NCBI GenBank assembly: GCA_040752695.1 | Contig: JBFMGO010000017.1 | Span: 5,048-69,047 of the forward strand | Source of the DNA: a bacterium | Lineage (GTDB): Bacteria > SZUA-182 > DTGQ01 | Length of the DNA: 64,000 bases | Direction of reading: 5' to 3' | Part shown: piece after piece, positions 27,093-55,539 of the stretch | Position numbering within the stretch: position 1 is the stretch's first letter | Layout of the letters: the number at the start of each line of letters is the position of its first letter | Made by a program: the position numbers and the translations under genes | The notes under the pieces: model-generated | Seen by the model: the letters and a program-made list of their open reading frames with translations, nothing else | Told to the model about the DNA's origin: nothing | The model's database searches: none

Positions 27093-27106
27093 AGGTGAAT
27101 TTGACT

Positions 27107-27622
27107 ATGAATATTGTAGTCTCTATTGGAGAGATAGATGAAGAAGGTCATTTTAGAAATCCACGGTGGTTTGCCCTTTTGAAATGGCTTAGAGATAGTT
27201 GCAATAATTTAAGGATATATACAAAATGGTACCGGTACCAATTAGGATCTACTTTATCAAAGGGGTGGAGTATTGAAGAAGAACCATTTCCCGATCAGAG
27301 TGCTGATATGCGAGGATTCCGATTGTGGCTGGAAGGAAAAAAAGCGTGGGATGATATTGTTAACCTTTTATTTGATATAGATAATGGGATCTCCCATATT
27401 TATTTTTTAGACGGAAATCACTATATTGGGGAATTAGAAGTAGAAGATGGTGAGAATTTCATAGTGTTACATGTAACACAGTCTCAAGAAATAGTTTTGT
27501 TAAATGAGATTCCTGATTTACGTAAAAATGTTGAAGTGTGTCGAATTTGGCATAGTCATATCGACGGACTAATGGATAATGCAGTATGGAAACCTTTAGG
27601 TGGCGCAGAAATACGTGAATAA
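27107..27622 (+). CDS. Putative cognate immunity protein of the RHS toxin
   Basis: Small AT-rich ORF starting 15 bp after the RHS stop, with an AAGGTG RBS. Position is typical for immunity genes; no family recognised. Confidence 0.7.
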   Translation: MNIVVSIGEIDEEGHFRNPRWFALLKWLRDSCNNLRIYTKWYRYQLGSTLSKGWSIEEEPFPDQSADMRGFRLWLEGKKAWDDIVNLLFDIDNGISHIYFLDGNHYIGELEVEDGENFIVLHVTQSQEIVLLNEIPDLRKNVEVCRIWHSHIDGLMDNAVWKPLGGAEIRE

Positions 27623-27654: not shown

Positions 27655-27927
27655 ATGAAAACTGAAGAGATAAAATTTGATATTCCGGAAGATATCCTTG
27701 CCTCTCTTAAAAGTGGCATAGAGGATCTAAAGCAGGACATACGGTCGATAGTGGCCATAACCTATTATAGAGAGAAAAAATTATCGCTTGGTAAAGCTGC
27801 TCAGTTGGCAGGGATGAACAGACTCGATTTTATGGACTTACTAGCTGAAAAGAGAATTACTATTTTCGATTTGGATGAGAGTGCTGCAAAAGTTGAGATT
27901 GAAAGTGCCAGAAATATCATAAGATGA
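27655..27927 (+). CDS. UPF0175-family antitoxin-like protein
   Basis: AITYYREKKLSLGKAAQLAGMNRLDFMDLL helix-turn-helix signature; paired with the downstream PIN gene. Confidence 0.88.
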   Translation: MKTEEIKFDIPEDILASLKSGIEDLKQDIRSIVAITYYREKKLSLGKAAQLAGMNRLDFMDLLAEKRITIFDLDESAAKVEIESARNIIR

Positions 27928-27941
27928 TGATAAGGTGAACC

Positions 27942-28427
27942 ATGATTATTGTGAGTAATTCTACGCCGATCATCGCCTTTTCCAGAATCAATCAAATGGA
28001 GCTTCTCCAGGTAATCGTTGGAAAGCTTTTAATTCCTGCAGAAGTAGCCAATGAATTATCAGAATATGGAAAAGGAAAGAACAAGAGCTTAGACCTTAAT
28101 CAACATAAATGGATTACGGTGCAGGAAATCCAGGATAAGTCCAAAATGAGGCTGCTTCTCCCCTCTTTAGATAGGGGAGAAGCAGAAGTAATTGAGCTGG
28201 CGATTGAAACAAAGACAGATTTAGTTTTAATTGATGAGTTGACCGGCAGGAAAGTCGCAGAGTCACTTGATTTGAATATTATTGGCTCGGCGGGAATTTT
28301 GATAAAGGCAAAAGATCTAGGAAAAATACAAGCAGTTAAACCTTACATGGATGAGATGGTTGATAAAGGGATAAGGTATAGCGAGCGATTTTATAAGAGC
28401 TTATTACACCAGATAGGAGAATTGTGA
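27942..28427 (+). CDS. DUF3368-type PIN-domain toxin
   Basis: MIIVSNSTPII, LDRGEAEVIELA, LVLIDELTGRKVA, GSAGILIKAK. Confidence 0.88.
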   Translation: MIIVSNSTPIIAFSRINQMELLQVIVGKLLIPAEVANELSEYGKGKNKSLDLNQHKWITVQEIQDKSKMRLLLPSLDRGEAEVIELAIETKTDLVLIDELTGRKVAESLDLNIIGSAGILIKAKDLGKIQAVKPYMDEMVDKGIRYSERFYKSLLHQIGEL

Positions 28428-28455
28428 GTCAGAAGAAGGAGGTGTCATGTCTGGA

Positions 28456-28642
28456 GTGCGCCAGGCGAAGCTTGCGCTGTCCAATTGGTTGAGAAGCCAA
28501 CCTGGTAAAGTTTAACCAACAGCCAGAACCGAGTTTTGCGCCTATGCAGGTAACTGTATAGGTGAAGCGTAAACAAAGGAGGCAGTAGGCCGTAATCCTA
28601 TGAGGGTGAAGGCGGGTCAGCTCCGAAAACTGACAAACGTTG
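28456..28642 (+). mobile_element. Group II intron 5' fragment (domain I), copy 1
   Basis: Begins GTGCG. GNRA-capped hairpins TTGGTT-GAGA-AGCCAA and GCCTATGCAG-GTAA-CTGTATAGGT, and a GAAGCGTA motif. Roughly 90% identical by eye to 30451-30637. No RT ORF and no DV/DVI. Confidence 0.8.
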
Positions 28643-28740
28643 AGAAGGCGAAGTAGGTGTCAGAGCTTGATTTGATATATATGGAAAAGGTGATAAAGTG
28701 TGTAGGATTTAGGATTAGGAATAGGATGGGAAGTTGAAAG

Positions 28741-28972
28741 ATGCCAGTTGTCATTCAGAGATGGCAAGGCACGGATAAGAAGATCCCAAAACACATAAAT
28801 AAATTGATAAAGGATATTCAAAGAAACAAGTATGAAAGTGTTGGAAAACCGGAAACCGCTAAAACATAATTTATTGGATTACTGGTCGCGTCGAATTATC
28901 AGTGAACACAGGCTGGTTTACAAAAATGGAAACGACCGGATAATGATAGCTCAGTTGAGATATCGTTATTAG
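28741..28972 (+). pseudogene. yoeB: Txe/YoeB-family toxin pseudogene
   Basis: WQGTDKK...INKLIKDIQRN...GKPE, frameshift near 28853, then PLKHNL..YWSRRIISEHRLVY...IAQLRYRY*. N-terminus missing; no YefM partner. Confidence 0.85.
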
Positions 28973-29010
28973 AAAAAGTATAATAGTAAAAAATGGAGAT
29001 GGTGAGGTGA

Positions 29011-29325
29011 ATGGCATTTTTTAAAGACTTCCGTAATAGGCATATCCGATTAACACATGAAAGACAGAATCATTTGGAAACTGATCATCCAGAAATGTTT
29101 GGGCAGATTGACAAGATAGAGCATACCTTGACGAATCCTGATATAGTTGTCAGGTCAAAAACAGATCCTGACGTTGAATTATTTTATCGACATTATCCTG
29201 CCACACCTGTTACTGAAAAGTATCTATGTGTGGTAGTTAAAGTATTAGCTGGTGACATGTTTATCATTACGGCCTATTTTACAGACACGATCAAAAAAGG
29301 CGAGATATTATGGGTAAAGAAGTAA
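29011..29325 (+). CDS. Putative toxin (DUF4258/BECR-like nuclease fold) paired with DUF2283
   Basis: IRLTHERQNHL..HPEM...TLTNPD...KYLCVVVK...FIITAYFTD; overlaps the downstream DUF2283 gene. Confidence 0.7.
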   Translation: MAFFKDFRNRHIRLTHERQNHLETDHPEMFGQIDKIEHTLTNPDIVVRSKTDPDVELFYRHYPATPVTEKYLCVVVKVLAGDMFIITAYFTDTIKKGEILWVKK

Positions 29326-29525
29326 AAATATGGTACGACAAAGAAGGAGATTACCTTGAAGTTATCTTTGAGCAAAAAGCCGGATACTTCAAGGAGACGG
29401 AAAATGACGCAATAATGGAAAAAGTAGATAATGAGGGAAACATTATTGGTTTTTCCATTCTCAAAGTGAGTGCCTTGAAAGAGGAAAAACCTTTTTCAAT
29501 CAGTCTTAAAAGCCATGCTGCGTAA
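29310..29525 (+). CDS. DUF2283-family antitoxin-like protein
   Basis: VKIWYDKEGDYLEV...VDNEGNIIGFSIL. Confidence 0.85.
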   Translation: MGKEVKIWYDKEGDYLEVIFEQKAGYFKETENDAIMEKVDNEGNIIGFSILKVSALKEEKPFSISLKSHAA

Positions 29526-29663
29526 GATTAGGGATGGGTTTACATTTGGTTAGGTTTACATTTGGTTATATATAAAAATTGGTTATGTACAAAAACGAGA
29601 AGATGTGGTGCCAACAATTCCTACGTTTTTTGGAGTGTGTAAAGTAAGTAAGGTAAAGTAAGT

Positions 29664-29709
29664 AAAGTAAGCCAATAGTTAGAAGCGAGTTTTGCGTAAT
29701 ACAGGTAAC
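29664..29709 (+). mobile_element. Degenerate internal fragment of the same group II intron (copy 3)
   Basis: AAAGTAAGCCAATAGTTAGAAGCGAGTTTTGCGTAATACAGGTAAC aligns with AAAGTTTAACCAACAGCCAGAACCGAGTTTTGCACCTATACAGGTAAC of copy 2. Confidence 0.6.
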
Positions 29710-29735
29710 CGCGCGGAGGTAAAGAGGTAAAACGG

Positions 29736-29993
29736 ATGCCAATAATCAGCCAATTTCTTGGGATCATCATTGCGATGTATTGGGATGATCATTTGCCCCC
29801 ACATTTTCACGCCAAATATGGAGGGTATGAAATTATAGTAAATATACTCAATGGAGTAATAGAGGGGAAGTTTCCCAAAAGAGCGCTCAGACATGTTCTG
29901 GAATGGTATGAGTTACATAAAGATGAATTGCTGGAAGATTGGGAACTTTGTCGAAAGCAAGAACAACCAAAACCAATTGAACCATTGGAGTAA
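29736..29993 (+). CDS. DUF4160-family protein (putative TA toxin)
   Basis: MPIISQFLGIIIAMYWDDHLPPHFHAKY...EWYELHKDEL...IEPLE. Confidence 0.9.
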   Translation: MPIISQFLGIIIAMYWDDHLPPHFHAKYGGYEIIVNILNGVIEGKFPKRALRHVLEWYELHKDELLEDWELCRKQEQPKPIEPLE

Positions 29994-29995
29994 AA

Positions 29996-30289
29996 ATGAT
30001 TTTGCATGTTACAAATGCAATATATATTGGGGATTATAAGGTAGAAGTATCTTTTAATGATGGACGCAAAGGGGTGGCCGATTTATCGGAGTCCTTAAAA
30101 GGCCCCGTTTTTGAGCCTCTGAAAGACAAGGCAATTTTTTCTCAACTGAAAGTTGATGAAGTCCTTGAAACAATTACCTGGCCAAACGGAGCAGATTTTG
30201 CACCAGAGTATTTATATTTTCAAGCGCTTAAGAGCAAAGCAGAACCAGAATTGCAGGCGAAATTTAAGGAGTGGGGATACGTTACCTGA
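29996..30289 (+). CDS. DUF2442-family protein (putative TA antitoxin)
   Basis: VSFNDG...GPVFEPLKD...TITWPNGADFAPEYLY; the usual partner of DUF4160. Confidence 0.9.
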   Translation: MILHVTNAIYIGDYKVEVSFNDGRKGVADLSESLKGPVFEPLKDKAIFSQLKVDEVLETITWPNGADFAPEYLYFQALKSKAEPELQAKFKEWGYVT

Positions 30290-30450
30290 TTAGTGATTAC
30301 TCAGGTAGATAGGTTATAGGCGTTTAGACTACGAAATCAGGGTCAGCCTTTGAATTTACAAGTAACAAACTGATAATACTCTCGATATAAGGTAATGTAT
30401 TTATCCAACGATAAATAAAAACAGCATTAAGAAGGATGTGTCAGTCTTGA

Positions 30451-30717
30451 GTGCGCCAGGCGAAGCCTGCACTTATCCAGTTGGTTGAGAAGCCAACCTG
30501 GTAAAGTTTAACCAACAGCCAGAACCGAGTTTTGCACCTATACAGGTAACTGCATGGGTGAAGCGTAAACTAGGGAGACAGTAGGCCGTAATCCGATGAG
30601 GGTGAAGGCGAGTCAGCTTCGAAAATGACAATCGTTGTGGAGTAAGCTGACGTGATTCAAGACACGGAAAGCAGCAACGAAGCCATCGTTAAGAGGTGAG
30701 ATGGTGGAAACTCCACT
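30451..30717 (+). mobile_element. Group II intron 5' fragment (most of domain I, including EBS1), copy 2
   Basis: GTGCG start directly after GTCTTGA. GTGGAGT...ACTCCAC stem encloses the hairpin CGTG-ATTCAAGA-CACG (30651-30666), whose loop TCAAGA is the reverse complement of the 5'-exon end TCTTGA. Confidence 0.85.
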
Positions 30718-30863
30718 GAAATCAGGAATGGGATAGTGGAAGGGAAAATGTCAAAGCGTGCTCTTAAAATGGTTTTCGAGTGGTATGAGCAGCATACTGA
30801 CGAATTACTCATGAATTGGGAGTTGGCGAAGGAAAGAAAGCCATTAAAAAAATAGAGCCTTAG
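30718..30863 (+). pseudogene. C-terminal fragment of a second DUF4160 gene, fused to the truncated intron
   Basis: EIRNGIVEGKMSKRALKMVFEWYEQHTDELLMNWELAKERKPLKK, frameshift, IEPL. Homologous to the C-terminal half of 29736-29993. Confidence 0.82.
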
Positions 30864-31708: not shown

Positions 31709-31904
31709 TTAATACTACAACGGGAGATTATCCAGACTCTCGCAGGGAGGGGGCCTTTTAGGTAAGGCAAAAAGAGCAACATTGGTCATTCCCGCGAAGG
31801 CTCGTCCAAGGCCCCAAGAATAGCTTGGAATCCAGAAGCCCCTATAAAGCCTGGATTCCCGCCTTCGCGGGAATGACGGTTTGAAAGTCTCGTTGTGGTA
31901 TTAA
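31709..31904. mobile_element. MITE-like element carrying a GTCATTCCCGCG palindrome
   Basis: Terminal inverted repeats TTAATACTACAACGGGA / TCTCGTTGTGGTATTAA (15 of 17 match). Internal hairpin GTCATTCCCGCGAAGGC...GCCTTCGCGGGAATGAC (31785-31877). Confidence 0.68.
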
Positions 31905-32063: not shown

Positions 32064-32089
32064 GTCATTCCCGCGAAGGCTTAGAATCC
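32064..32089 (+). repeat. Half copy of the GTCATTCCCGCGAAGGC REP-like repeat
   Basis: GTCATTCCCGCGAAGGCTTAGAATCC; the first 17 nt are identical to 31785-31801. Confidence 0.7.
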
Positions 32090-32173
32090 GTTATGAGCGA
32101 AAGAGTTAAATACCAAAACAGGAAAGAAACGAGAAGGATAAATCATAGATCCAAAACGGAAAGGAGTGATATC

Positions 32174-48265: not shown

Positions 48266-48405
48266 AAAGGGGGGAGTTACACTTAACCATGAATTACTTT
48301 ATTCCTTATATCCAGCAACGGATTCCGGACATGAGAGAAGGGTAATGAAAAGAATCCAAATACTTCAGCAAGGGGAGATTGAGAAGGGAGCTTATGGAGG
48401 ATACC

Positions 48406-51400
48406 ATGAATATGAAAATTTCCAAGATCCAGTATAGCCCAACTTTTATCGGAGAACTTTTTACCATTATTCTTATCCTTTCGCTGTTCTTTTTTGGGAG
48501 AACTACTGCCGCACAGGTAATTGTTAACTCTTTTTCTCGCGAAAAAGAAGCTGGAACCTTTCAATTTCCTCCCTCCCTGCCAAGTCTGACACCTCCCTCT
48601 CTGCCAAGTCTAACACCTCCCTCCCTGCCAAGCTTGACACCTCCCTCCCTGCCAAGCCTGACACCTCCCTCTTTGCCAAGTGCAACACCTCCCTCCTTGC
48701 CAAGCTTGACACCTCTCTCTCTGCCAGGTGAACCACTTTCCCCCTGGTCAATTGTACCTCCTATTCCCCTCATACCAAGCCCAATACCTCTCCGTCCTCC
48801 TGCCGGGATTGGAGGAGGTGGTTTTATGCGGGAATCTACTCAAGATCAAGTTTATTTGGGATTAGTGGGGCGGTGGAATAATGATTATGGTCAATTTTGT
48901 GCTGTTAAGCACATGGAATTACAGGAAGAGGGGAAGAGTGCGATAAATTATGTCTGTTGCGCTACCTCGAAGGGGGTGGTGATCTATAATAACATTGGCA
49001 GGCAAACAGCAGCTTCTTTCATCCCTCTTGATAGATGTGAAGATTTAGAAATATACAGAGAAACCCACGGAGGTGCCATTTATCTCTATATAGCTGGAGA
49101 GAGGGGCCTCCACATCATCAACATAGATGATTCTACAAAGCCGTATTATGTCGCTCGCTGCAATACTCCTGGTGAGGCACAAGGTGTAGCCGTAGGGAAT
49201 AACCTTGCTTATGTAGCTGACGGAGAAAGCGGCATACAGGTTGTCGATATCAGCGACCCGAGCAGGCCCAGGATTGTCGGGAGCTTCGACACCCCGGGCT
49301 TTGCGAAGGATGTGGCCCTCCGGGATGACTATGCTTATGTGGCTGATGGGAAAAGTGGTTTCCATGTTGTTGATATAAGCGATCCGAGCGGGCCTAAGCT
49401 TGTTGGAACCTGTGATACGCCCGGCTCCGCGGAAGATGTAGTTATAGATAGTAACTATGCTTATGTAGCTGATGGAAGTTGTCCCGACTTCGGGATGAGG
49501 GGAGGCTTATTCCATGTTATCGATGTAAGTAATGAGAAGGAACCCTTTATTTTCGACACCTGTCTTTTTAAGGCTGCTATTGAGTCGAGATACGCACAAA
49601 GTGTAGCCATAAGCGAGGGATATGCTTATGTAGCCGTTTCGCTGATTCCGGAGGGTATGGTCTATATTATAGACATCAGTGACCCGAACGCAAGTATTGT
49701 TGGAATTTGGAATACCGAAGGCCCTGCCTTTGGTGTGGATGTAGGGGGCAATTATGCTTATGTAGCAGATGGCATCCCGGAGATGAATGGCTTGCAGGTT
49801 CTTGATATTAGTGACCCGACCGGGCCAAAGCTTGTGAAAACCTATTATGCCTATGACTGTGCACTAAAAGTGGATGTAGATGGTGATTATGCTTATGTAC
49901 ATGATAATTATAAGGGCTTACAGGTTATCGATATCAGCGACAAGAGCGGACTCAAGCTTGTTGGCGGTCTTGGTATCTCTGACTATGCACAAGATGCAGT
50001 TATTGGGGATGACCATACGTATATAGCTAACGGGAGTGGCGGCTTACTGATTATCAATACCGCTGACTCGACCGGGCCAAAGCTTGTTGGAACCTGTGAT
50101 ACGCCTGGCTCCGCGCAAAATGTGGTTATAAGGGACAACTATGCCTATGTAGCCGATGGGGAAAACAGCTTACTGATTATTCACATGAGCGACCCGGATG
50201 GGCCATGGCAAGGCTGGAGTTTCAATCCCCCGGACAATGCAATAGATGTAGCCATAAGGGATGACTATGCCTATGTAGCTGATGGGGAAAGCGGTCTACG
50301 GATAATTGATATCAGCGACCCGACAAGGGCAAAGCCTGTTAGTACCTTTGATACGCATGGCTACGCGCAAGGTGTTGTTATAGGTAGCAACTACGCCTAT
50401 GTAGCTGATGGAGAAAACGGCTTACTGATTATCGATATCAGTGATCCAAAATGGCCGTGGGAAGCGGGGAAATACGATATTTCTGATTCTGATAATCCGC
50501 TGGCAATGACGATGGACGTAGCTCTATCGGGAGACTATGCTTTTGTAGCCGGAGGGGGCTGGCACGGCTCGCAGGGGAACGGCTTGCAGGTTATTAATGT
50601 CAGCGATCCCTATAGACCAATGCTTGTCGGAACCTGTGATACTGGCTCTGCATACGATGTAGCCATAGAGGGAGACTATGTTTATGTAGCTGCTGAGGAC
50701 TATGGGTTATTTAAGCTCAAGATAAATACGGGTCCTTCTCCAAAAGGCAATCTTGTTTTAGTTGCGGGAGGAGGTGAAAATGCCCTCTGGCCTGTTACTC
50801 AGGGCCAGGCAAATCAGGTACTGAATACCTTCTTCAATCATGGCTATGAGTTTTACGACACCTGGTATCTCAATCCTATATCATCCCAAGACATTGATAA
50901 CGATGGTGTTTTCGATCAACTGGCAGTAGATGATTTTAAACCGACTCGTGATGGTTTAAAACTTGCTGTAACTGATTGGGGAATCAATGAGAGTATCAAC
51001 ACCGGCCCCTTATTCATTTCTCTCATAGGTCAAGGTGCACAGGACCTCTTTCAGATCATGCCTAATGAAGTATTATCTGCCAGGGAGTTAAAAAGCTTCA
51101 TTGATATCTTTCAGGTGACAACACGCCCTGTAATCGTCCTCCTGGAATTTACCTCCTCCGGTTCTTTCTGCAACGATCTGATAGATGCCGATATTCCCCC
51201 TTATACCCGCACTATCATAACCTGCACGGACGAAGGGAGCTCTTATCTTGATTCCACAGGGCAACGCTCCTTTACCGGACAGTTACTGTCCCTCTTTCAA
51301 AATCCCAACCAGACGACAGATCAATTATCCGGCCTTTTCGCCGATATCGGAATCTCGCATTACCAGCGGGTCAAACTCATGCAGGGCCTTTTCTCCCAGG

Positions 51401-54400
51401 CACGGGACAGCTTCTGGTCCTCAGGCCATCCCTTCGATACGCAGCCCCCCCAGATGGTCACTGCCCAGGGGCCCCATACTCTGTACAGCATCGCCCTCAC
51501 GGCAGACTCTCATCAATCCACCATTACCGATCCCAACCAATTCATCTTAACAGACTCCGGCCAGACTATAGTCCTCACAGCCACAGGCCACTACTTGGAC
51601 GGTGACTTCGACCTCACCGGCCAGGTTTACTATCACTCCTCAGATCCATCCATACTGCTGGTAACCCCTGACGGTAAAGCCTCGCCCAATCTCGCCACGG
51701 AATATAATGGCAAGGCTTATATCCTGGCCACCATCATTGACCCGAACTTCACCCAGGCGCCCGGTCATGATATTGATCCAAACTTCACGCAGGCTCCCGG
51801 TCAAGGTCCCGATTATGGTCATGATCAAGGTCCCGATTATGGTCATGGTCAAGATCCTAAAATCCCGCCGCTTGGAGGAGTAACCGGAAGAATCCCGGTC
51901 ACAGTGGAAATCCCGGCCTGGAAAGAAAAAGATGGCCTGCCCCTGGCCATAATCGTGGCTGGAGAAATAAGTAAAAACGACAGCCTCTGGAAAGACACAC
52001 ACACTATTGCCCAGTATGCGTACCTTACACTCCTTGACAGGGGATACAGTCGAAGCAGGATACAGTATTTTACCCACCTTGAGGAAAAACTTGGTACCAG
52101 CAGCGACTATAAAAGCACAGATCTTGACCAGGATGGAGATCCAGACAATGATATAGACGGTATCCCCTCCCTGGATACTCTCGGTCAGGCACTCACCACC
52201 TGGGTAGAGGAAAAAGGGACAGACAGCCTCATCCTCATTTTGGTAGACCACGGCCAAAGATCAGGCGGATTCTATCTGAACCAGTACGATATACTCACCC
52301 CTCAGCTTCTGGATTTGTGGCTGGATGAGCTGCAAGACCAAAATCCGAACCTTAAAATTACCATCATTATCGAATCATGTTATTCGGGGCTGTTTACCGA
52401 ACCACTGAAGAGAAAAGACCGCATCATCGTCACCTCCACGAACCAGGATGTGTCCTATAGCTCCGCTCAGGGGCTGGTTTCCTTTACCTACTATCTTCTT
52501 ACTTCCCTGCAGGCCGGATCCAATCTGGCATCTGCTTATGACAGTGCCCGCTGCTCCATGTCGGAGATAGGCCGCTTCCTGTACAAAAACAAAGAAACCC
52601 TCGATGAGCCTCGCCAACTGCCCCAGCTTGAGAACCGCCCTCTGGCCAATGTCACTTCCCTTAGCGGTGACTTTATCATCAGCCAGGGTCAGCCGGTCAT
52701 CACTTCGGTGGAACTTTCCCCTGATCCTGATCATATTCCCTATGAACAGGAGGTCACCATACGGATCAATGCGTTTGACCTTGACGGCATAGCCGAGGTC
52801 TGGGCCATGGTCAATGCCACTTACAGCCGGCCTGTATTTTCCGGTGATCCTGAGCGGCCAGTTATAGATCTTCCCCGGATAGATCTTTCGCCCGCAAAGG
52901 AAGGTGGGTATAAGGGCACTTACTCCGGCTTTGCCTACCCCGGCCCCTACAGCCTGCTCGTTTTTGCCCGCGACCAGGACGGCAGCGTCTCTTTACCCTG
53001 CACGGTATCGCTCAATGTAACCGGGCAGGCGCAAAACAGGGCTCTTTTGCTGGCTGGATGGAACCCCGCAGATCCTGACCGGTTTTCCCGCCTCCTCTCC
53101 CATGCCCAGTGGGTTCTTCAGGAAAAGCGCCTGGATAAGGTTGTCCCGCTCCTCCCTGCACCTGACGGGTCGGGCCCCACTCTTGAAAATGTCCATCGCA
53201 CGCTTCAAGACCTGGCTCAGGGTGCGGATCAGCTCTTTGTCTATCTTATCGGGCTAACGCTGAGACCTGACGGGCCAACACTGAGACCTGACGGGCCAAC
53301 ACTAAGGCAGAGCGACCATGTGGTTTTTCAGCTCAACGAGCAGGAGACACTGTCACCGGATAAGCTCGACGAATGGCTGGATGAGCTTTCAGGATGCAGC
53401 CAGGTGGTACTTGTAGATACTCCTGAAGCCCAGGATTTCTTTCGATCATCGCCCAACCGGATCTATGTGGGAGGTGCCTCCAAGGGGGAGGATGCCTATC
53501 TGGATCAGGGAGCCTACTGCTCTTTCTCGCACTTTTTCTTCACCTGCCTCTACTGGGGGGCAAGCGTCAGACAGGCTTATGAATTCTCGATCAATGCGCT
53601 CAAGCGGTATTCACGCCAGACTCCGGCACTGGAGGACGGACAACAGGGAAAAGCGGCCCTGGCCACCTATATCGGCTCGCCCTTTGTAGTCAAAACCTGT
53701 GGTCCCCGGCTTATAGTGCCGCATGGTCAATTCGTGCAGGGGGATGAATCCCTGCGGGTCGATGTATCGGAGTCAGATCCCAACACCAGAAGCACCAGAG
53801 TCTGGGCGCTGATCAAGGCACCTGGCAAAGAAATTGGGGAACTGGAGGAGATAACCTTCTCAAAAGCACCAGGCCAGGAAGGAAGATATCAGGCCAGCTA
53901 TTCCTTTGTCCAGGCAGGCACCTACGAGATCACCGTCTACACGGAGGACTCACACGGGCTGCTGGACTACGATACGACAACTGTCACCGTGGAAAGTATA
54001 GTGAAAAGTATATATGAAAAAGATAACTTTGAGGTTGATGATACTCCAGTCCAGGCTGCTCCCATACTGATCAATGATATTCAATTCCCCCAATTGCACA
54101 GCTTTCACAATGCTCATGATACAGATTGGGTTATCTTTCATGCATACCCCGATAGATGGTATGATTTCTGGGTGATGAGAAAAGGCGATTGGCTGGACTG
54201 CCCCCTCAAGGCAGCACTTTATTTCCTGGATCTGGATAGTGAGCAGATTATAGAGGTTCTGGACGAATATGACCAAACGCCCAGGATTCTCGGTTTCTCC
54301 GGATACTCAGGATGTGAACAGTCGGATTACATCTATCCCGGCCTCCTGTCCAGGGCCGGATTCTACTTTCTCAAGTTCTATTACGGCTGCGACACTATAC

Positions 54401-55539
54401 CTGAAGGGGCGAATACAGAATACGAGATTATCAAGATCACGGACGATCAGGCAGCTCCAACCGGGACTATCTGCGGCCATGTGCTCCACAGTACCTATCA
54501 TTCTGGTATTCCGGGAGTAACGGTCAAGACAGAGATCATCGCAGCCGGTGGAAAAACTCAGCCAATCGAGACGAAGAGCGGAAAGGGAGGAGTTTTCTTT
54601 CTCTTTGATCTGGAGGCGGGGGATTATCAGGTTAAGGCCGCAGCCCCCGGATACCAGGACAGCCTGACGACTTTTGTTCCGGTAACGGAAAATTCATATA
54701 CAGGCTTTACCATTTATCTTTCCCCCGATTCTCAGGATTCTGTTAAGCCATCAGTACCTGATATCCTTAATGTGTTGGACAATTATACCCCTTCTGTCCA
54801 AGCCAGTTATAAGGATCGCCAAAAAGAACGCATCATAACCCTTCGTACGGGAATGAATCTGTTCAGTTGCCCCTGCCTGCCTCTGTATGCTGACAGCGGA
54901 TCGTTTCTCCAGGAAATTCGTCATTCAGTCAGCACCTACTATCAGAAAAAAGACACCCCCTTCGGGCTCTTGGCGGATATTCGCAGATACGATTCGTACA
55001 ATGGCCGATGGCAAACCTGCTCTCTAGATACTAACCGGAAAGTTCAGGGAAAGATCTTTAATCTTGATCCTCGTGAAGGCTACCTGGTGTATCTCGATAT
55101 CCGGGATATCCAGAATCCTGACCGGAGCCTGAAATCGCTGACTCTGCCTGTCACGTGTGCCAAGACCGAATCTCAGAGCACTGAATCTCAGAGCGAGGGA
55201 TATCATTTCAAGCCGGGAATCAATTTTGTTGGTTTTGACCAATCTTCCTGCCAATATGACTCAAATCGTTTGCTGCAAAACCTGAAGCAAGTGAATACCA
55301 CAGCAAATACGGCAAAAAACCTTGCGAATACAGTAAAAATCCCTGCAAATACGGCCATAGACCCTGCAAATACGGCAAAAATACCTGCGACCATGTTCCA
55401 CTATTCACCCCGGAGCGGATCTTTCCAGCCTCATTACCAAATGTTCGGCCAACCTGCCGGTCAGCCCTGCCAACTCGAAGAAGATAAAGGATACAACCTG
55501 TTTATTAAGGAGGAAATCCGTGATTGGCAGATCGAGTAA
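48406..55539 (+). CDS. Secreted LVIVD-repeat protein with peptidase C13 (legumain/clan CD) domains and a carboxypeptidase-regulatory-like domain
   Basis: GGAGG RBS and signal-like N-terminus. About 12 LVIVD repeats (YAYVADGESGLRIIDISDP). LAIIVAG...LVDHG (52246)...IIIESCYSG (Cys 52378). DLEAGDYQVKAAAPGY. Confidence 0.85.
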   Translation: MNMKISKIQYSPTFIGELFTIILILSLFFFGRTTAAQVIVNSFSREKEAGTFQFPPSLPSLTPPSLPSLTPPSLPSLTPPSLPSLTPPSLPSATPPSLPSLTPLSLPGEPLSPWSIVPPIPLIPSPIPLRPPAGIGGGGFMRESTQDQVYLGLVGRWNNDYGQFCAVKHMELQEEGKSAINYVCCATSKGVVIYNNIGRQTAASFIPLDRCEDLEIYRETHGGAIYLYIAGERGLHIINIDDSTKPYYVARCNTPGEAQGVAVGNNLAYVADGESGIQVVDISDPSRPRIVGSFDTPGFAKDVALRDDYAYVADGKSGFHVVDISDPSGPKLVGTCDTPGSAEDVVIDSNYAYVADGSCPDFGMRGGLFHVIDVSNEKEPFIFDTCLFKAAIESRYAQSVAISEGYAYVAVSLIPEGMVYIIDISDPNASIVGIWNTEGPAFGVDVGGNYAYVADGIPEMNGLQVLDISDPTGPKLVKTYYAYDCALKVDVDGDYAYVHDNYKGLQVIDISDKSGLKLVGGLGISDYAQDAVIGDDHTYIANGSGGLLIINTADSTGPKLVGTCDTPGSAQNVVIRDNYAYVADGENSLLIIHMSDPDGPWQGWSFNPPDNAIDVAIRDDYAYVADGESGLRIIDISDPTRAKPVSTFDTHGYAQGVVIGSNYAYVADGENGLLIIDISDPKWPWEAGKYDISDSDNPLAMTMDVALSGDYAFVAGGGWHGSQGNGLQVINVSDPYRPMLVGTCDTGSAYDVAIEGDYVYVAAEDYGLFKLKINTGPSPKGNLVLVAGGGENALWPVTQGQANQVLNTFFNHGYEFYDTWYLNPISSQDIDNDGVFDQLAVDDFKPTRDGLKLAVTDWGINESINTGPLFISLIGQGAQDLFQIMPNEVLSARELKSFIDIFQVTTRPVIVLLEFTSSGSFCNDLIDADIPPYTRTIITCTDEGSSYLDSTGQRSFTGQLLSLFQNPNQTTDQLSGLFADIGISHYQRVKLMQGLFSQARDSFWSSGHPFDTQPPQMVTAQGPHTLYSIALTADSHQSTITDPNQFILTDSGQTIVLTATGHYLDGDFDLTGQVYYHSSDPSILLVTPDGKASPNLATEYNGKAYILATIIDPNFTQAPGHDIDPNFTQAPGQGPDYGHDQGPDYGHGQDPKIPPLGGVTGRIPVTVEIPAWKEKDGLPLAIIVAGEISKNDSLWKDTHTIAQYAYLTLLDRGYSRSRIQYFTHLEEKLGTSSDYKSTDLDQDGDPDNDIDGIPSLDTLGQALTTWVEEKGTDSLILILVDHGQRSGGFYLNQYDILTPQLLDLWLDELQDQNPNLKITIIIESCYSGLFTEPLKRKDRIIVTSTNQDVSYSSAQGLVSFTYYLLTSLQAGSNLASAYDSARCSMSEIGRFLYKNKETLDEPRQLPQLENRPLANVTSLSGDFIISQGQPVITSVELSPDPDHIPYEQEVTIRINAFDLDGIAEVWAMVNATYSRPVFSGDPERPVIDLPRIDLSPAKEGGYKGTYSGFAYPGPYSLLVFARDQDGSVSLPCTVSLNVTGQAQNRALLLAGWNPADPDRFSRLLSHAQWVLQEKRLDKVVPLLPAPDGSGPTLENVHRTLQDLAQGADQLFVYLIGLTLRPDGPTLRPDGPTLRQSDHVVFQLNEQETLSPDKLDEWLDELSGCSQVVLVDTPEAQDFFRSSPNRIYVGGASKGEDAYLDQGAYCSFSHFFFTCLYWGASVRQAYEFSINALKRYSRQTPALEDGQQGKAALATYIGSPFVVKTCGPRLIVPHGQFVQGDESLRVDVSESDPNTRSTRVWALIKAPGKEIGELEEITFSKAPGQEGRYQASYSFVQAGTYEITVYTEDSHGLLDYDTTTVTVESIVKSIYEKDNFEVDDTPVQAAPILINDIQFPQLHSFHNAHDTDWVIFHAYPDRWYDFWVMRKGDWLDCPLKAALYFLDLDSEQIIEVLDEYDQTPRILGFSGYSGCEQSDYIYPGLLSRAGFYFLKFYYGCDTIPEGANTEYEIIKITDDQAAPTGTICGHVLHSTYHSGIPGVTVKTEIIAAGGKTQPIETKSGKGGVFFLFDLEAGDYQVKAAAPGYQDSLTTFVPVTENSYTGFTIYLSPDSQDSVKPSVPDILNVLDNYTPSVQASYKDRQKERIITLRTGMNLFSCPCLPLYADSGSFLQEIRHSVSTYYQKKDTPFGLLADIRRYDSYNGRWQTCSLDTNRKVQGKIFNLDPREGYLVYLDIRDIQNPDRSLKSLTLPVTCAKTESQSTESQSEGYHFKPGINFVGFDQSSCQYDSNRLLQNLKQVNTTANTAKNLANTVKIPANTAIDPANTAKIPATMFHYSPRSGSFQPHYQMFGQPAGQPCQLEEDKGYNLFIKEEIRDWQIE
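48568..48726 (+). repeat. 24-bp in-frame tandem repeat encoding (PPSLPSLT)n
   Basis: CCTCCCTCYCTGCCAAGYYTGACA, about 6.5 copies. Confidence 0.9.

Follow-up and report, generated by a model that had tools for sequence, protein, structure and literature searches.

Group II intron relics of an endonuclease-less, IIE/IIF-like kind at a recurrent short motif that probably belongs to mobile-element terminal repeats

In the window, the 64-kb stretch of DNA analysed here (G000:C17:5048-69047), two group II intron fragments each commence immediately downstream of a copy of the same short motif, and the question raised by this locus is what that motif represents. A preliminary description had viewed it as a site between the gene cassettes of an integron-like system, on which an intron lineage had specialised in the manner of the group IIC-attC introns. 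The interpretation favoured here is that the two fragments, designated W1 and W2, are probably relics of an IIE/IIF-like intron lineage that lacks an endonuclease and homes into the terminal repeats of mobile elements. The finding is a textbook group II intron habit preserved in two decayed copies, and not a new cassette or integron-like system. The features that carry this interpretation are the two fragments and the exon sequences that precede them.

28433-28455, plus strand: copy A, 5′ exon and putative homing site, with intron-binding site 2 (IBS2) TGTCA at 28443-28447 and IBS1 TCTGGA at 28450-28455
28456-28630, plus strand: W1, group II intron 5′ fragment, intron positions 1-175 of ~2081 (profile E 9e-52)
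30429-30450, plus strand: copy C, 5′ exon and putative homing site, with IBS2 TGTCA at 30439-30443 and IBS1 TCTTGA at 30445-30450
30451-30717, plus strand: W2, group II intron 5′ fragment, intron positions 1-267, most of domain I (profile match 30451-30718, E 1.4e-73)

The motif reads AAGAAGGAGGTGTCATGTCTGGA in copy A and AAGAAGGATGTGTCAGTCTTGA in copy C, and GTGCG follows directly at 28456 and 30451, respectively, exactly as first described. The pattern GTGTCA-N(0-3)-TCTKGA occurs twice in the window compared to 0.06 expected occurrences, a number that was reached in 0 of 100 shuffles. The GTGCG sequence (GUGYG) at the 5′ end and the domain I fold are present in both W1 and W2. The Rfam model RF02005 (group-II-D1D4-6; gathering score 49) matched 30488-30730 with 109.8 bits (E 3.5e-30) and 28492-28663 with 66.8 bits (E 1.7e-16; 82 model positions deleted), and this pair constitutes the sole gathering-level Rfam matches in the 64 kb. 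The profile matches were obtained with nhmmer using an intron profile built from two full-length relatives, C228 and C114, that are described below. The RF02005 and profile matches confirm that the fragments derive from group II introns.

Both fragments are incomplete at the 3′ end. In W1 the exon-binding site EBS2 is retained, the EBS1 hairpin, domains II-VI and the open reading frame (ORF) are gone, and homology frays somewhere between 28630 and 28650. W2 is broken off inside domain I and is joined directly at 30717/30718 to the remnant of a DUF4160 gene, a junction that marks the deletion that took away the remaining intron. No RF00029 match to domains V-VI was found anywhere in the window, intron sequence past position 267 produced no BLAST match there, and no intron-encoded reverse transcriptase or maturase is present within it. 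As domains II-VI and a reverse transcriptase are missing from the window, W1 and W2 are dead 5′ stubs and not functional members of the family.

The guide sequences of the introns were compared with their exons. In W2 a hairpin is formed by CGTG (30651-30654) and CACG (30663-30666) around the loop ATTCAAGA (30655-30662), within which EBS1, TCAAGA, occupies 30657-30662; EBS2, TGACA, is located at 30626-30630. Copy C makes six Watson-Crick pairs with the EBS1 of W2 and five with its EBS2. The EBS2 of W1, TGACA at 28631-28635, makes five Watson-Crick pairs with the IBS2 of copy A. An alignment was assembled from W1, W2, C228, C114, G009:C108, G009:C39, G003:C36, G003:C6 and the metagenome contig L022, in which the 8-nt EBS1 loop differs among copies and its stem is conserved. 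EBS1 corresponds to loop positions 3-8 of the Id3 hairpin and its partner to exon positions -6 to -1, and EBS2 consists of the 5 nt that follow CGAAAA in the Id stem, with its partner at exon positions -13/-12 to -9/-8. The assigned sequences are as follows.

W1: EBS2 TGACA, IBS2 TGTCA
W2: EBS1 TCAAGA, IBS1 TCTTGA; EBS2 TGACA, IBS2 TGTCA
C228: EBS1 TTGAAA, IBS1 TTTCAA; four EBS2-IBS2 pairs
C114: EBS1 AATAAA, IBS1 TTTATT; EBS2 TGTCC, IBS2 GGACA
G009:C39, decayed: EBS1 AAAAGA, IBS1 TCTTTT; only 3+1 EBS2-IBS2 pairs
G009:C108: EBS1 TAGGAA, IBS1 TTCTTA (one G-U); EBS2 TGCTT(T), IBS2 (A)AAGCA

Cognate combinations of EBS1 and IBS1 yielded 6+0 pairs (Watson-Crick + G-U) in four of five copies and 5+1 in the fifth, compared to a best value of 5+0 for non-cognate combinations. 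Cognate EBS2 pairing comprised five Watson-Crick pairs in four of six copies, four in one and 3+1 in the other. Thus, the EBS1 (TCAAGA) and EBS2 (TGACA) that had been proposed for W2 hold, and the covariation with the 5′ exon that had been put forward as a check was observed across copies. Guide loops that match the flank of their own intron are a defining property of group II introns and are in themselves nothing special.

A search of the whole genome with W2 located four places, which were W1, W2 and two full-length introns that form the L026/L027 pair.

G000:C228:150-2230, minus strand: full-length intron C228, 2081 nt, apparently intact
G000:C114:13134-15215, minus strand: full-length intron C114, 2082 nt, apparently intact

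These introns are 77.7% identical to each other. RF02005 matches their 5′ ends and RF00029 (domains V-VI; 58 and 55.9 bits) their 3′ ends, and their 473-aa ORFs reach 342.5 bits on NCBIfam TIGR04416 (cut-off 300). The intron-encoded protein (IEP) possesses only RVT_1 (residues 116-345) and GIIM (374-440) and no endonuclease domain, and the ORF ends at domain V, which within the RF00029 match reads GCGG-GAAAU-CCGC with a 5-nt loop. The intron RNA minus the ORF measures ~730 nt. IEPs without an endonuclease are ascribed to classes C, D, E and F and to a few CL introns (PMC4424553), and the 5-nt terminal loop of domain V is described as a peculiarity of IIE/IIF (PMC3753933). The IIE/IIF introns Cl.be.I2, Pe.th.I2 and Ge.ur.I1-1 resemble the window family in these two respects and also in the accounts given of a compact RNA (~730 nt without the ORF), an IIB-like organisation, and an EBS1 accompanied by a co-varying EBS2 (PMC3753933). 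The covariation of EBS2 has been noted in IIE/IIF, yet EBS2 is reported there to be dispensable for splicing in vitro (PMC3753933). The presence of EBS2 indicates that the intron is not IIC-like, and the family appears to resemble IIE/IIF, as judged from the IEP domains, the domain V loop and EBS2 rather than from a reverse transcriptase phylogeny. Classification by similarity to plasmid-borne introns was dropped; the best plasmid-borne relatives of the IEP are 42-47% identical and bear no class label.

Full-length copies that encode a reverse transcriptase had been anticipated at the window motif, and full-length relatives at unrelated sites had been named as grounds for abandoning that idea. 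The two copies that were found both sit at GGGGACAGATTT palindromes, so that, taken to the letter, full-length relatives do insert elsewhere. The C228 intron is located in a palindrome loop (GGGGACAGAT-TTCAA / ATCTGTCCCC, with the slash at the insertion point) and the C114 intron likewise within a palindrome (GGGGACAGATTTATT / ...); the target of both is the loop of a GGGGACAGATTT...AAATCTGTCCCC palindrome, to which the EBS are retargeted. Unoccupied GGGGACAGATTT palindromes resemble bidirectional terminators. Comparisons beyond the genome of the window were made with 20 genomes, which are the same 20 for the class and the phylum and are all draft assemblies, and the control was the reversed pattern. 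On this basis GGGGACAGATTT is present in 53 copies in 9 of the 20 genomes compared to two for the control. Siting in terminator palindromes is an IIC-like behaviour in an intron that has EBS2. As a separate observation, a lone 3′ fragment (domains V-VI) of a related intron lies at G000:C29:25300-25378 on the minus strand and is followed by a 3′ exon that resembles that of C114 (...CTTTGTCCA...AAGTCTGTCCCCTTTTTCC).

The target of W1 and W2 was nevertheless encountered again in other DNA. Occupied sites were found in the sister species at G003:C6 (GGTGTCAAGTCTTGA / GTGCG, with a 30-nt intron remnant) and in metagenome contig L022 (GGTGTCAGATCTGGA / GTGCG). Across the 20 phylum genomes the junction pattern detected only the three known sites, and in metagenome contigs it detected two loci, namely L022, an occupied site that is truncated where the contig ends, and a second locus without an intron. 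Thus, the intron sub-lineages recur at the same exon sequence outside the window. The IBS1 variant tracks the sub-lineage, with TCTGGA at W1 and L022 and TCTTGA at W2 and G003:C6, and the 5′ exon of L022 reads as the W1 exon plus one additional 13-nt unit. The W1 and L022 introns are 96.4% identical (133/138), compared to 89.7% (174/194) for W1 and W2 and 89.5% for W1 and C228, which has a different target. W2 and the G003:C36 fragment of the sister species are 92.0% identical (219/238), and the EBS1 and EBS2 of these two copies are the same.

The short flank of the introns resembles a repeat family that is dispersed through the phylum. The pattern AGGTGTCAN{1,2}TCTKGA produced 14 matches in 9 of the 20 genomes compared to one for the reversed control. 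Two of the 14 are occupied by an intron, seven are identical unoccupied copies of the 16-mer AGGTGTCAGGTCTTGA in four genomes, one is a close variant and four are 15-mers. Identity to the 16-mer is 15/16 at G003:C6, 13/14 with one deletion in copy C, and 13-14/16 in copy A and in the unoccupied copy B that is described below; in copy A 13 of the 16 positions are alike. The core 12-mer GTCAGGTCTTGA is far more numerous, with 210 matches in 18 of the 20 genomes compared to four for the reversed control, mostly as inverted pairs 30-340 nt apart and in numbers that range from 0 to 59 per genome (59 in G008, 43 in G010 and 29 in G005). The similarity among 32 sampled sites has a sharp boundary at TGGG / GTCAGGTCTTGA / ATTATCAGTTT, and the core is accordingly the outer terminus of a small element with inverted repeats. 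The 22-nt inverted repeat AGGTGTCAGGTCTTGACATGCA at G016:C50 consists of two copies in opposite orientation and encloses a gene for a Y1 (IS200-like) transposase (Y1_Tnp, Pfam E 4e-14) whose C-terminal DnaA-like helix-turn-helix (HTH) scores 26.7 bits, below the cut-off of 31.5. Three of the 10 near-full-length Y1 homologues in the phylum are flanked by inverted core copies, a further three have related inverted repeats (GGGGTCAAATCTTTATT, GGGTCACATCTTAAAT), and no such repeats were found at the remaining four. The window motifs would descend from this family. The miniature inverted-repeat elements of the family, with the outer end TGGGGTCAGGTCTTGAATTATCAGTTT, were recorded at G016:C50:460-1512 (L039/L074), G008:C12 (L081) and G016:C55 (L087) as well as at many sites in G008, G010, G005 and G001; as a phylum-wide family they are apparently previously undescribed.

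The recurrence of the motif that had been claimed at the outset is borne out by this sequence family in the phylum, and the accompanying proposal of a single-stranded site drew no support from folding. The predicted hairpin TGTCA-GGTCT-TGACA has 5 bp and -3.2 kcal/mol. When seven sites were folded, a 4-5-bp stem formed in four and was absent in three, and it was no better than in shuffles in three of the four sites that form it (z -0.75, -0.80, +0.10 and -2.13). The idea of a single-stranded site would now draw solely on the link to Y1 transposases. A GTAG or ATAG tag was read in ~6 of the 13 listed sites and NNAG in most copies.

The common motif at W1 and W2 would carry no information on targeting if one insertion had been followed by a local segmental duplication that included ~22 nt of flank. 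The two stubs are indeed both 3′-truncated and identically oriented at a distance of 1996 nt, AAGAAGGAKGTGTCA is common to them, and their flanks differ by two substitutions and one indel in 23 nt, which is like the ~10% divergence of the introns. However, no similarity is apparent upstream of the 22-nt flank or downstream of the stubs, W1 is nearer to L022 than to W2, and W2 is nearer to the G003 fragments (219/238 and 28/30). The split between TCTGGA and TCTTGA also follows the sub-lineages in three separate sources, and the 1-nt difference in exon spacing is mirrored by 1 nt before EBS2 (CGAAAACTGACA compared to CGAAAA-TGACA). The greater affinity of W1 to L022, the sorting of the IBS1 variants by sub-lineage and the lack of similarity past the flank argue that W1 and W2 are independent insertions of two sub-lineages. 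A duplication of the flank together with the intron, which the preliminary description had recognised as fatal to its own proposal, thus is quite unlikely. An alternative at the level of the repeat family is that the resemblance between exon motif and terminal repeat is coincidental and that the intron has a unique homing site of the ordinary sort, which underwent drift or transfer among a few loci. This explanation gains from the shortness of the similarity, from the sequence of the high-copy elements, from the failure to find the intron in repeat-rich genomes and from the weak hairpin, but is judged unlikely. The exact 16-mer is present unoccupied seven times in four genomes compared to ~0.03 occurrences expected from size alone, and it is one base removed from the occupied G003:C6 exon. 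In addition, subterminal tandem units (..TAGGTGTCAY..) precede the G016:C50, G017:C86 and occupied L022 sites alike, and the G009:C39 exon TATCAGGTCTTTT has TCAGGTCTT in common with the core.

Several observations nonetheless weigh against relics of an intron that homes into terminal repeats. The connection of the motif to the repeat family is a similarity of 13-16 nt, and three of the four 15-mers are inside long ORFs and may be chance matches. All 32 sampled high-copy sites read GGGGTCA and not GGTGTCA, from which it follows that the exact target of the intron is a rare sub-type. Intron domain I was not found in the repeat-richest genomes G008, G010 and G005. The genome of the window has only four core copies, and a protein query revealed no intact RAYT-like gene in it; the one match to the Pfam model is a broken IS200-type remnant on C133, which is unrelated and lacks the motif. 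The search for a full-length W-type intron was negative: a scan of the genome contigs with a 19-mer of the W-type EBS1 hairpin returned five loci, none of which matches the intron profile, as for chance matches, and a 23-mer scan of metagenome contigs returned 0. The EBS1 of the W1 sub-lineage is unseen, as W1 has lost it and the sequence of L022 stops at intron position 138. W1 and W2 also have eight more upstream bases in common (AAGAAGGA) that are absent at the other two occupied sites, and a further motif-like sequence, copy B, lies at the 3′ edge of W1.

The remaining alternative is that the motif is the boundary site of an attC-like system of toxin-antitoxin cassettes, with the intron as its specialised parasite in the style of IIC-attC. 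The placement of the motif lends this some appeal: each of the five intron-linked copies comes immediately 3′ of a small gene for a toxin, an antitoxin or an immunity protein. Copy A starts 6 nt past the stop codon of DUF3368, copy C follows DUF2442, the G003:C6 copy follows a YgiT/MqsA-like gene, and the L022 motif follows the gene after an RHS-SLT toxin. Furthermore, W1 and L022 are both downstream of homologous RHS genes, as the RHS protein of L022, which has an SLT toxin tip, shares 52% identity over 424 aa with the end of the window RHS protein, and the two loci are of a homologous kind. The gene content of the island also differs between sister species. Against a cassette system, motif-like sequence in the island downstream of the giant RHS gene is confined to three boundaries, those of the two stubs and 28648-28670, and is missing at the other six or seven gene boundaries; no inverted partner of the motif was found within the island. 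The 15-mer AAGAAGGAKGTGTCA occurs twice in the 6.05-Mb genome, both times at the stubs. Nor is there enrichment in this genome of AGGTGTCA (156 compared to ~185 expected), of GTAGGTGTCA (9 compared to 11.5) or of the 13-mer with one mismatch or fewer (6 compared to 7.2); the pattern GTGTCA.{0,2}TCTKGA occurs six times compared to 4.45 expected and the exact 13-mer three times compared to ~0.2. Unoccupied copies in other genomes adjoin or sit in ordinary genes, among them those for a hexapeptide transferase, GH57 and PS decarboxylase, and not beside toxin-antitoxin cassettes. No integron integrase above the cut-off was detected in the genome (best 88.7 bits compared to 265), the intron, unlike IIC, has a co-varying EBS2 and a full-size domain V, and other members of the intron family use other targets. 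A cassette system thus is very improbable; neither the inter-cassette role of the motif nor the comparison with integrons and IIC-attC introns is sustained, and of the intron lineage said to be specialised on cassette sites it is the recurrent target, seen at G003:C6 and L022, that endures.

Minus-strand matches to the motif at 48580-48725 were set aside as coincidence, since they belong to a coding 24-nt tandem repeat inside the ORF at 48379-55539. On the coding plus strand the 24-nt (8-codon) unit recurs in tandem six to seven times close to the N-terminus of a 2386-aa protein, and the minus strand of this stretch reads GGGAGGTGTCAGRCTTGG, which resembles the exon motif.

If W1 and W2 are relics of an intron that homes into terminal repeats, the active intron would have located its DNA target by RNA-DNA pairing of EBS1 and EBS2 and reverse-spliced there. 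In an intron without an endonuclease, copying presumably proceeded from a nascent strand at the replication fork, as the literature on endonuclease-less introns suggests. The flanking motif would be the homing site, with GGTGTCA-N-GTCTKGA as a variant form of the terminal repeat at the outer ends of small inverted-repeat elements. The repeat family is dispersed through the phylum and associated with IS200-like Y1 transposase genes of RAYT- or TIRYT-like kind, and the intron would hide in its ends. In the window, three solo copies of the end sequence would have come to lie among toxin-antitoxin genes downstream of the giant RHS toxin gene, two of the three would have been invaded, and later deletions would have taken all that lay 3′ of intron position ~175 in W1 and 267 in W2.

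A broader possibility, which is offered tentatively and is more doubtful than not, is that the intron clade tracks the diversifying terminal repeats of Y1 (HUH) elements, with EBS1 and EBS2 retuned in each sub-lineage to one repeat sub-family. The putative sub-family targets are GGTGTCA..TCTKGA, the GGGGACAGATTT palindromes, TCAGGTCTTTT, and ..GCAAATTCTTA, which may be compared with the inverted repeat GGGGTCAAATCTT. Under clade tracking, and with the same reservation, every target might have IBS2 on its 5′ arm, with insertion into the loop or the first part of the 3′ arm. If this were true, the intron would be a retroelement with the ends of single-strand-DNA transposons as its specialised niche, and it may use the same lagging-strand single-stranded window as they do.

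Among known systems the closest parallel to relics in terminal repeats is provided by RmInt1 and RmInt2, class D introns of Sinorhizobium that are associated with ISRm2011-2 and ISRm17 (PMC4615759). As recounted in that source, their IEP is without an endonuclease domain, and IBS1 and IBS2 define the target together with a small number of distal positions in the exon. They home into the body or the terminal inverted repeat of another mobile element, which offers many safe sites, and the EBS of related introns within a genome differ, having been retargeted; RmInt2 itself occupies the ISRm17 inverted repeats (PMC4615759). Unlike these introns, the host here is linked to a Y1/HUH transposase and small non-autonomous derivatives and not to a DDE insertion sequence, domain V has the 5-nt loop of IIE/IIF and not of class D, and the window copies are dead stubs known from sequence alone. 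Introns are described as commonly hiding in mobile elements (PMC7306698). The IIC and IIC-attC introns, such as B.h.I1 and S.ma.I2, similarly exploit recurrent palindromic motifs outside genes, and C228 and C114 sit in terminator-like palindromes. In contrast, IIC introns are characterised as having no EBS2, inserting after a stem-loop and reading structure over sequence (PMC1702495, PMC4424553), whereas introns of the window family carry EBS2, enter the palindrome itself, in its loop or the first part of its 3′ arm, and recognise sequence, and neither attC nor an integron integrase is present. In folding, W-type sites are without a strong upstream stem-loop.

The repeats themselves bear comparison with the REP/REPIN-RAYT systems, in which REP denotes repetitive extragenic palindrome, and with the ‘TIRtron’ (PMC3733652, PMC3337134, PMC2817692, PMC8266576). 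In the accounts of these systems short repeats are single or paired in inverted orientation, they flank the Y1 transposase gene as inverted copies, and copy number varies widely, as it does here. Y1 transposase genes flanked by REPs or by longer inverted repeats are both described (PMC3733652). The present family is unlike these systems in that the GTAG tag is found in a minority of sites, the predicted hairpin is 5-6 bp, and the C-terminal DnaA-like HTH is below the Pfam cut-off. REPs have been reported as targets of mobile elements, with two of nine group II intron copies at REPs in Pseudomonas putida KT2440 (PMC1525189). Beyond this entry, a non-exhaustive search of the literature found no paper on group II introns that use RAYT/REP repeats or the terminal repeats of Y1 transposases as homing sites. 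The window family would extend the strategy of hiding in another mobile element, for which RmInt2 and ISRm17 are the example, to HUH-type elements and to an uncultivated phylum. It also furnishes a naturally occurring series of EBS1/EBS2-exon pairs that co-vary, in an IIE/IIF-like family without an endonuclease, and it draws attention to an apparently undescribed repeat family throughout the phylum at 0-59 copies per genome.

The other features that bear on the intron and the motif in the window are listed here.

28648-28670, plus strand: copy B, unoccupied motif-like copy GCGAAGTAGGTGTCAGAGCTTGA at the 3′ edge of W1, with three mismatches to the 15-mer
29663-29722, plus strand: a third intron fragment, older and more diverged, intron positions 51-110 (nhmmer E 5.3e-5, a weak match)
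30718-30855, plus strand: 3′ third of a DUF4160 gene without a start codon (Pfam PF13711 E 7.2e-7, profile positions 35-65 of 65)
27655-28427, plus strand: pair of UPF0175 (27655-27927) and DUF3368/PIN-like (27942-28427) genes (Pfam), directly upstream of copy A

Positions 28652-28664 of copy B (AGTAGGTGTCAGA) match the repeat unit that adjoins the L022 intron at 13 of 13 positions. The third intron fragment is part of the direct-repeat family D2 (84% over 25 nt) and ends 13 nt upstream of an intact DUF4160 gene at 29736-29993 (Pfam). The UPF0175-DUF3368 pair is also found in G003:C6 with 82% DNA identity, ~720 nt upstream of the occupied motif, and is the only element of synteny common to the window and G003:C6.

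The island that contains these features lies downstream of a gene at 3459-27092 on the plus strand for a 7877-aa RHS-repeat protein, in which RHS_repeat is present in nine stretches and the RHS core motif in the last 1030 aa. A 175-aa ORF without a Pfam match (27095-27622, plus strand) follows directly and is probably the immunity gene of the RHS protein. Beyond it is a graveyard of toxin-antitoxin genes that includes UPF0175/DUF3368, PBECR-like and DUF2283, DUF4160/DUF2442, and a PIN pair on the minus strand. A YoeB-like toxin pseudogene occupies 28741-28969 on the plus strand, with residues 11-45 and 50-80 of the Pfam model in different frames, and no antitoxin gene was recognised next to it. 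In the sister species, locus L011 (G003:C6:107074-110117; positions 790-860 and 1725-1795) contains a block between two direct ~60-nt copies of the 5′ end of a RarA/MgsA-like gene, which suggests that the block was inserted with a target duplication; the block carries DUF4258, the YgiT/MqsA-like gene and the occupied motif with its 30-nt intron remnant. A repeat family unrelated to the motif is represented in the window by the 17-nt word GTCATTCCCGCGAAGGC, which has three exact copies, one of them inverted, at 31785-31801, 31861-31877 (minus strand) and 32064-32080, just upstream of a 1617-aa ORF at 32093.

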